A program made the position numbers and the translations under genes. 2,081 nt of DNA from Escherichia phage ECO95 1-6-1. Location of the stretch: the sequence record OR845563.1; one strand, 5' to 3'. This document shows positions 31 through 451 of the stretch, one piece after another. Position 1 is the stretch's first letter. Every line of letters begins with the position of its first letter. The notes under the pieces are model-generated. The model made no database searches and was not told where the DNA came from. It saw nothing but the letters and a program-made list of their open reading frames with translations.

Positions 31-189
31 GCCAACCGAGATTCGGCCTATCGTCTCGTGGGCTCGGAGATGTGTATTAGAGACTTCGGTTTCATCATCA
101 AAATTCATATACAGCGATGTTGAGAGCAACGCTTCCAGGCGGCGCAGTTCATCTTCAATGTCAATTTCCGACCATTTGACCTTACGCAT
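1..189 (-). CDS. Hypothetical protein, C-terminally truncated by window edge; translationally coupled to the upstream Icd-like gene
   Basis: ATG at 189..187 overlaps the upstream gene's stop (ATGCGTAA; stop TAA 184..182). A perfect SD, AGGAGG, lies 6 nt upstream, embedded in the last codons of the preceding gene. Open frame with no stop to the window edge, translating as [51 protein letters not shown]... The last ~10 codons run into the poly-G artefact and should not be trusted. No family recognised. Confidence 0.55.
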
Positions 190-451
190 GACGCACCTCC
201 TGAATCGCGGCGCTGTCGAACTCCCACCCGCGGCGGGTGGTGTAATCGAAGAACGCAACGCGGCAAGGAGCCTGAGCGCGGATTTTGGCGGCAAAAACTA
301 AATCCCAGCCGGGGAAAGCGGCGCGGGCTTTAGCTTCCGTGTCAGCATCAAAGCGAAGCACTACTGGGGTGCATTCAGGAGTGTGATCTGGGGTTGCCAG
401 GAATAACCATGTAAATTCCGGGCGAGTTTGGGTAGACTGATTGTCAGCCAT
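182..451 (-). CDS. Small protein (89 aa), probably a host cell division inhibitor Icd-like protein of the kind found in P4-like and prophage early operons
   Basis: ATG at 451..449 preceded by SD GAGGT at a 7-nt spacing; stop TAA at 184..182. Translation: [60 protein letters not shown]...EVRHA. The F-x-W-L-F-L-A ... EA-x-AR ... W-x-L-x-F-A-A pattern matches my recollection of Icd-like proteins; this is from memory, not a search. The listed 253-aa ORF (182..943) is this gene plus a non-coding 5' extension. Confidence 0.6.

Follow-up and report, generated by a model that had tools for sequence, protein, structure and literature searches.

The DNA considered here is a stretch of 2,081 nucleotides (the window, by which this whole stretch is meant) from the sequence record of Escherichia phage ECO95 1-6-1 (OR845563.1), and it represents that end of an approximately 15-kb capsid-forming phage-inducible chromosomal island (cf-PICI) at which regulation and replication are encoded. 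Its main subject is a small gene on the minus strand, icd, whose coding sequence (CDS; 182-451, with ATG at 451-449 and TAA at 184-182) specifies an Icd-like protein of 89 aa. A Shine-Dalgarno sequence, GAGG (460-463, minus strand), is located 8 nt 5′ of the ATG, in the loop of a small GUUA...UAAC hairpin; the arrangement GTTA-N3-4-GAGGTAAC is kept around this site in an alignment of 26 related loci, which were returned, all from Enterobacterales, by a scan with one genome per species. The next gene (87-189, minus strand; PHROG 7465), of which the window contains the start and which encodes 62 aa in an E. coli relative, has its ATG within the icd stop region (ATGCGTAA overlap), and the codon of His88 is CAT in 22 of 22 loci that have His there. 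The satellite context of icd, its position between alpA (and an antirepressor-type gene, ant) and the primase gene, and the start/stop overlap are direct observations.

This 89-codon open reading frame (ORF) is a real gene and not a chance reading frame. An earlier reading of the DNA from its letters alone (the sequence-only reading) had placed it at these coordinates on the minus strand, and it is upheld by its Shine-Dalgarno sequence and by its homologues, of which a word-indexed search found 94 and an exhaustive search found 361 cluster representatives (E ≤ 1e-3). Among 25 related genes, residues 36-55 of the protein are conserved and synonymous sites in the same region are free to vary, which indicates that selection acts on the Icd-like protein. 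The protein comprises a domain at residues 13-58 and a subfamily-specific C-terminal extension of 31 residues (59-89). In an AlphaFold2 model (mean predicted local distance difference test score 74), strands are predicted at residues 13-21, 30-36, and 49-58 and a helix at 39-44, forming a strand-strand-helix-strand core to which two further strands are added as a C-terminal beta-hairpin, giving five strands in all. A fold search of this model against the PDB found no match at E ≤ 0.001, a profile search of PDB sequences with the protein returned nothing, and no Pfam family matched it; the best match of the model among predicted viral structures was another Icd-like protein.

Membership of the 89-aa protein in the Icd family is supported by several sequence comparisons. 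On the NCBIfam profile NF033153 ("host cell division inhibitor Icd-like protein", cut-off 25 bits), it scores 62.8 bits (E = 2e-17), with residues 13-58 aligned to profile positions 1-47 of 48, and phage P1 Icd, taken from the P1 genome, scores 52.6 bits with residues 12-51. Direct comparison of the two proteins by BLASTP gave 27% identity over 66 aa (E = 3e-6), and their shared core reads TRPEF-x-W-x-F ... TE-x-x-AR ... P ... F-x-A-(K/R). They are placed in different PHROGs, phrog_1743 and phrog_1426, which cross-match reciprocally. The pattern on which the Icd-like assignment had first been based, F-x-W-L-F-L-A followed by W-x-L-x-F-A-A-K/R, is present as F13TWLFLA19 and W49DLVFAAK56, and the assignment is borne out by the profile and BLASTP searches. 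In addition, RefSeq names near-identical proteins "host cell division inhibitor Icd-like protein". Since RefSeq annotates the same gene in this way, the gene call is ordinary and already known; the regulatory anatomy around icd is richer than first described and partly new.

The function of P1 Icd has recently been studied by experiment. The protein stops Z-ring formation, and its interaction with FtsZ, a link reported only in 2025, was detected by two-hybrid and pull-down assays (PMC11897509). The same paper found that P1 Icd is active by itself from a plasmid and that nothing shorter than the fragment 12-51 retains near-full activity, FtsZ binding, and filamentation (PMC11897509). Because the region aligned on the family profile corresponds to P1 Icd 12-51, the part shared with the window protein equals the experimentally defined active core of P1 Icd.

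The sequence-only reading had also grouped the protein with Kil-type inhibitors, and this part needs to be divided. Lambda Kil, T7 Gp0.4, and T5 Hdi are likewise small phage proteins that block Z-ring formation, which is the outcome proposed here for the window protein, but they have been described as two-helix proteins (PMC11897509), whereas the window model is predicted to be mostly beta-strand and a two-helix hairpin was not found in it. No sequence similarity of the window protein to any of these three proteins was detected either, so the Kil comparison does not extend to this helical group. It does hold for satellite P4, whose genome contains a nested ORF of 65 aa that we take, in line with a published summary (PMC10111431), to be kil, the in-frame cell-killing product within eta, and that scores 76.1 bits on NF033153. 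P4 Kil has been described as a cell-killing factor (PMC10111431).

By analogy with P1 Icd at 27% identity, the window protein would be expected to inhibit division, with toxicity and filamentation as the outcome. Several points weigh against such a transfer of function. First, the identity to P1 Icd is low, and pairwise BLASTP between the window protein and the P4 65-aa ORF gave no match, the link between these two being at the profile level. Second, Arg15 of P1 Icd, which is among the residues placed against FtsZ by an AlphaFold3 model (PMC11897509), is replaced by Leu16 in the window protein, although the Arg is kept in a sister subfamily. Third, the 31-residue C-terminal extension has no counterpart in P1 Icd, and extra residues flanking the P1 Icd core lowered activity (PMC11897509). 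Finally, FtsZ binding is known for P1 Icd alone (PMC11897509). The same divergence, including the replaced Arg15 and the additional C-terminal beta-hairpin, would fit a protein with the Icd fold and a target other than FtsZ, perhaps a helper-phage or island protein by analogy with other small proteins from this part of satellites, such as P4 epsilon; icd adjoins an antirepressor-type gene, and the Icd-like proteins that a 2026 survey of Enterobacter cloacae found in the majority of P4-like, PICI, and cf-PICI elements were annotated by homology only (PMC13612085). We regard such a different target as unlikely, considering that P1 Icd targets FtsZ, that P4 Kil has been described as cell-killing, and that conservation falls precisely on the region active in P1 Icd.

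Beyond the gene itself, the sequence-only reading had described its promoter and operator, and these parts of the picture stand; it had missed a long in-frame ORF that begins at the end of ant and a terminator on the antisense strand. The long ORF (185-919, minus strand) comprises 245 aa from an ATG at 919, is preceded by GGAGG (930-926), and ends as the Icd-like protein; its ATG overlaps the last codons of ant (stop at 905-903). The icd frame is open for 166 codons 5′ of the ATG at 451, whereas stops interrupt the two remaining frames after 2 and 4 codons, and a shuffled sequence of 468 nt was stop-free in 0.0002 of trials. The same frame has no stop over the 450 nt upstream in 15 of the 26 loci, where the other frames have 6-15 stops. 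Lengths of 200-630 aa are seen in many database homologues, which end in the Icd-like domain and have no Pfam domain elsewhere, and a Pfam search of the window extension and eight long homologues gave no match, including none to Phage_ASH. It appears that the conserved feature of the extension is the absence of stops and not the peptide. Some observations count against a maintained reading frame: icd-frame stops are found within 450 nt in 11 of the 26 loci, 4 of which have another same-strand frame fully open, and the extension in the window runs antisense through the RHH gene (a ribbon-helix-helix regulator gene described below) and resembles non-coding sequence.

The layout of long ORF and icd resembles the nested eta/kil arrangement of P4, in which eta (8767-8171, minus strand) starts in an ATGA overlap with orf88/vis and kil occupies 8365-8171. 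In both elements, a long ORF starts over the stop codon of the gene before it and ends, in frame, as the Icd-like ORF; an internal promoter, predicted in the case of the window, serves the short form; and the Icd-like ORF is located upstream of a primase operon, which in P4 belongs to a left operon of vis/orf88, eta (with the CI RNA and kil), epsilon, and the alpha primase. They differ in that eta of P4 harbours the CI immunity RNA together with an isrK-like element, neither of which is found in the window, and in that the window extension is antisense to a protein-coding RHH gene. Moreover, the N-terminal part of P4 Eta matches Pfam Phage_ASH (82 bits), whereas the window extension matches nothing. 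C4 and isrK RNAs were absent at the Rfam gathering threshold in nine related loci, and P1 and P4 were both detected in the same way. As a separate observation, the Phage_ASH match of P4 Eta (L031, 8171-8767, minus strand) covers a stretch that also encodes the CI RNA gene, and thus this apparent protein family may partly reflect conservation of the RNA gene.

Translation of P4 eta prevents transcription termination (PMC10111431), which raises the question of whether the window ORF acts mainly in cis, its translation shielding the transcript from Rho and thereby controlling the replication genes, with the protein being secondary or unimportant. The long stop-free frame in the window and in related loci, as well as the overlap of the next gene with the icd stop region, would be explained in this way. 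However, at residues 36-55 the amino acids are kept in spite of free variation at synonymous sites, and the domain is common to P1 Icd, which acts as a protein when expressed by itself (PMC11897509). A purely cis-acting ORF is therefore quite improbable in our opinion, and since cis and protein roles are compatible, the former would be more an addition than a replacement.

A very different function is implied by PHROG annotation, in which the window protein matches phrog_1743, labelled "transcriptional repressor" (1.2e-41). The P4 record retains an old CDS of 137 aa, "cI gene product", that bears the same label; this CDS contains the CI RNA gene (Rfam C4 at 8507-8420), and its last 65 codons are the Icd-like ORF. 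The PHROG 1743 label was most likely inherited from this obsolete annotation, and as the window protein has no DNA-binding fold or family match in Pfam, PDB profile, or fold searches, it is highly improbable that it is a transcriptional repressor in spite of its strong phrog_1743 match. Conversely, because the P4 65-aa ORF ends the mislabelled cI CDS and matches NF033153, P4 Kil, P1 Icd, and the window protein belong to one family.

The promoter of icd (562-591, minus strand) is predicted to consist of a perfect -35 element, TTGACA (591-586), an 18-nt spacer, and the -10 element TACTGT (567-562), which would place the transcription start near position 555 and give a 5′ untranslated region of approximately 100 nt. 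The strong -35 element had been noticed from the letters alone, and its placement is kept: TTGAC is found 132-150 nt 5′ of the icd ATG in 18 of the 26 loci, and in these 18 a TAnnnT, read by eye, lies 17-18 nt beyond it. At least 12 of the 18 have a divergent ORF of RHH type and approximately 60 aa whose start codon is overlapped by TTGAC, and wherever this overlap occurs the second codon of the RHH-type gene is TCA, one of six Ser codons. A candidate operator (542-584) is formed by the inverted repeat GTGTGTACCTATT / AATAGGTACGCAC, whose 13-nt arms (542-554 and 572-584) are 92% complementary, lie 17 nt apart, and bracket the -10 element, one arm being in the promoter spacer and the other over the expected transcription start. 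The proposed placement of icd downstream of an operator and an antisense RHH gene is borne out by the anatomy found here, and conservation of the promoter and operator layout is supported by sequence comparison of the related loci, in which the arms of the inverted repeat vary from one RHH subtype to another.

The RHH gene (585-779, plus strand) encodes a predicted Arc/Mnt-like and YlcI/YnfO-like protein of 64 aa, and homologues occur at the same position in 12 of the 26 loci. The protein matches PHROG 228, "Arc-like repressor" (4e-8), and the Arc repressor in the PDB (E = 0.016); its Pfam scores are 23.3 for RHH_5 (cut-off 26), 21.1 for HicB (cut-off 21), and 16.9 for Arc (cut-off 20.4), and its NCBIfam YlcI/YnfO score is 19.8 (cut-off 30). 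As the ATG of the gene lies inside the icd -35 element, its promoter should be located within the region transcribed for icd, and the two promoters would stand face to face. The inverted repeat is presumably the operator of this Arc-like protein, which would make it the candidate repressor of icd. Certain features are unfavorable to such a switch: the -10 element of icd matches the consensus at only 3 of 6 positions, for which reason the promoter was missed by an automatic scan; the RHH assignment stays below the Pfam RHH_5 and NCBIfam thresholds; and no convincing sigma-70 promoter for the RHH gene was found between 524 and 584.

Downstream of the RHH gene, a promoter-like site is present on the plus strand at 818-846 (TTGACC, 17 nt, TATGCT, with an upstream TG), and it is followed by a plus-strand terminator made up of a stem at 877-896 and then TTTGTTTTAT, the whole region being 818-906. 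On the other strand, the hairpin at 877-896 codes for the conserved residues "KTKAALQ" with which the long ORF begins. This hairpin may simply be the terminator of the RHH gene, or it may belong to another short RNA that faces the beginning of the long ORF.

The region in front of icd is also conserved as DNA. This conservation covers approximately 60 nt ahead of the ATG, reaches 45 nt into the gene, and persists even at about 40% protein identity. At codons 2, 7, 8, 9, 13, and 14, one and the same codon occurs in 21-25 of 25 genes, whereas later conserved residues use 3-4 codons each. In all 26 loci, the antisense version of the leader hairpin is more stable than the sense version. With a hand-set structure for the antisense strand, 95.8% of alignment cells pair, compared with approximately 41% when the partners are slid, and compensatory changes occur in 7 pairs. 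Read as the antisense strand, the same alignment contains 60 G·U cells, compared with 3 for the sense strand, although these cells are not independent events because the sequences are related. A U-rich tail follows the antisense stem in most loci (median 5 of 9), and the fold of the hairpin region in the window has a z-score of -4.7. RNAalifold applied to a sense-strand MAFFT alignment gave a weak consensus, the signal being clear with the antisense strand and the hand-set structure. Together, antisense-strand stability, covariation, G·U bias, and the U-tail lead to an intrinsic terminator on the plus strand opposite icd (481-523), with a GC-rich stem at 481-515 followed by G and seven Ts at 516-523, and comparison of the loci shows that this terminator is under selection as RNA on the antisense strand.

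No plus-strand protein gene is present upstream of the terminator. The likely product that it ends is a cis-antisense RNA of approximately 80 nt (445-523, plus strand; the 5′ end being putative), which would cover the Shine-Dalgarno sequence and AUG of icd. Its predicted stem-loop 1 (447-478) has the anti-Shine-Dalgarno sequence CCUCACU in the loop and the anti-AUG in the stem, stem-loop 2 is the terminator, and the whole RNA folds with -32.8 kcal/mol (z = -4.1). A covariance model of this motif (R1) detected one motif per icd copy in each locus searched, including two copies outside the training set, and none in P1 or P4. A search of both strands of the window against Rfam (E ≤ 10) gave only chance-level matches and nothing resembling an antisense RNA.

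A candidate promoter for the antisense RNA (410-438, plus strand; TGTAAA, 17 nt, TAGACT) lies inside icd codons 5-14. In the general form TGTAAA-17-TA(G/T)(A/G)CT, it is the only candidate that occurs in every locus, coincides with the frozen synonymous sites, and is the best sigma-70-like site in 19 of 25 loci and the second-best in the other 6; what speaks against it is its weakness, with 7 of 12 consensus matches. Two other candidates were rejected: TAAATT (412-417) as an antisense -10 element fails in four loci that have Phe TTC and has no -35 element in the window, and TTGGGT as an antisense -35 element has no conserved -10 element. In addition, the sequence GTCT[AC][AC]CCAAAC (minus-strand reading) occurs twice, at 426-437 and 472-483, 46 nt apart and flanking the ribosome-binding site of icd; the copy in the leader and the copy in codons 6-9 are each kept across loci. 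The pair might serve as a target site, bind a protein, or form part of the antisense promoter.

Other RNAs were found outside the window. Rfam searches of the related loci detected tRNAs and the int-alpA RNA motif (RF02996), which is located 3′ of the integrase gene and 5′ of alpA (L006, 3091-3158; L025, 3022-3088; L023, 2692-2760; L016, 239-307). As a regulator of icd, this RNA was rejected, having no complementarity to the repeated ACC(A/C)AAAC sites or to the icd leader.

The assignment of the window to a cf-PICI is mainly based on its match (98% identity) to a chromosomal island of E. coli ET670, which is inserted between fis and yhdJ. This island encodes, in order, an integrase, a DUF6387 protein, AlpA, an AntA/KilAC antirepressor-type protein, a small divergent gene product, and the Icd-like protein; the latter is followed by four small ORFs, a DUF927 primase, an HK97 capsid protein, a protease, and a portal protein, and the island ends with head-closure/connector proteins, HNH, TerS, and TerL, being approximately 15 kb long and devoid of tail genes. 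Such an anatomy corresponds to the published definition of capsid-forming PICIs (cf-PICI preprint). The features by which cf-PICIs are recognized are all present in the ET670 island, and the window itself holds alpA, ant, the RHH gene, icd, and the start of the next gene. Like cf-PICIs of the EcCIEDL933 type, the island possesses int, alpA, primase, a full HK97 head module, and terminase genes without tail genes. All 26 loci share the order of int, alpA, sometimes ant, a divergent small regulator, icd-like gene, small ORFs, and primase, often with a capsid module. In the window, the antirepressor-type gene (903-1682, minus strand) has an AntA/AntB N-terminal and a KilAC C-terminal part (Pfam ANT, 7e-26; AntA, 1e-23), and the AlpA-family regulator gene (1693-1977, minus strand) matches Pfam Phage_AlpA (2e-10) and PHROG 2790 (5e-43). 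AlpA is the helper-induced activator of Gram-negative PICIs (PMC6092414; cf-PICI preprint), and the global repressor of these elements has been called unclear in the PICI literature (PMC6092414). Neither the cf-PICI preprint nor the Gram-negative PICI paper (PMC6092414) mentions an Icd-like gene or an RHH/operator module; the "Icd" that appears in the paper on HE-PICIs (PMC10111431) is the isocitrate dehydrogenase integration site and is irrelevant here.

The account that we prefer, and consider reasonably probable, is that icd encodes an Icd-family protein as the first translated gene of the replication operon of a cf-PICI, that this protein arrests division via FtsZ, and that its expression is kept locked. 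Upon induction of the island, the Icd-like protein would bind FtsZ and septation would stop, so that the host cell would be kept undivided while the island replicates and packages its DNA. Three locks may act on expression. The first would be the promoter with its consensus -35 element, whose -10 element and start are bracketed by the inverted repeat acting as the operator of the Arc-like RHH protein encoded face to face. The second would be the stop-free ORF that leads from the end of ant into icd, as P4 eta leads into kil: by analogy, we infer that helper-activated transcripts from the alpA promoter are translated through the long ORF, which would allow them to escape Rho-dependent polarity and to reach the primase operon. 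The third would be the short cis-antisense RNA, which ends at the conserved terminator, covers the Shine-Dalgarno sequence and AUG of icd, and might thereby block its translation.

Comparison with P1 helps to place this arrangement. In the immI region of P1 (c4 RNA, icd, and ant1/2), a small protein is likewise encoded by the first ORF after an immunity control element, its gene has a start/stop overlap with the next gene, and an antirepressor-type gene is part of the same module. In P1, however, the antirepressor gene is downstream of icd and not upstream, the place taken in the window by a putative protein repressor and operator is occupied by the C4 RNA, the Icd protein itself differs (27% identity, Arg15 where the window protein has Leu, and no 31-aa C-terminal extension), and the genome is a phage-plasmid whereas the window element is a satellite. 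A parallel is also offered by the immI region of P22 (mnt/arc, Pant, and sar) and by systems of the SymE/SymR type, in which the operator of an RHH repressor overlaps the promoter of a harmful early gene and a short antisense RNA covers the ribosome-binding site, its promoter being in or next to the target gene. These systems have no sequence relationship to the window, and, unlike in P22 and SymE/SymR, the antisense RNA of the window is deduced solely from a conserved antisense terminator and frozen synonymous sites. Tentatively, and with somewhat less than an even chance in our estimation, one enterobacterial PICI/cf-PICI lineage may have swapped the C4/CI RNA of P1 and P4 for an Arc-like repressor with its operator in a promoter that faces its own gene, an antisense RNA of about 80 nt that is new to Rfam and not described before, with compensatory changes conserving its anti-Shine-Dalgarno loop and terminator, and a stop-free translate-through ORF antisense to the repressor gene. 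If this is true, Gram-negative PICIs would have a repressor-based switch that is lacking in the published AlpA-only model. Routine arrest of host division by satellites on induction, if true, would be an undescribed part of satellite biology, and the RHH/operator promoter, the eta-like frame, and the antisense terminator provide handles on the silencing of Gram-negative PICIs.

Several minor observations concern the records themselves. At its left end, the window contains letters of non-genomic origin: poly-C fills positions 1-30, and positions 53-86 match the Illumina Nextera adapter GTCTCGTGGGCTCGGAGATGTGTATAAGAGACAG with 3 mismatches, a match of which none would be expected by chance. An apparent index and P7 remnant precedes the adapter match, and the match to E. 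coli begins at approximately position 86; this artefact truncates the 62-aa gene that follows icd. Two other "phage" records, Klebsiella phage P12620-1 (L002, 106.5 kb, region 88149-106415) and Salmonella phage S.Kent 1-2-1 (L003), contain an Icd-like gene of 100% identity. In the Klebsiella record, the neighbouring ORFs lie at the record end and match the integrase, primase, capsid, protease, and portal genes of the island in size and order, which points to a satellite that was co-assembled or co-packaged and not to a gene of the phage. Finally, a Pectobacterium contig (L025) contains two Icd-like genes (1121-1291 and 6001-6174), approximately 4.9 kb apart and each accompanied by a separate antisense motif (73.9 and 71.8 bits); since an integrase gene lies between them, they probably represent two tandem satellites.

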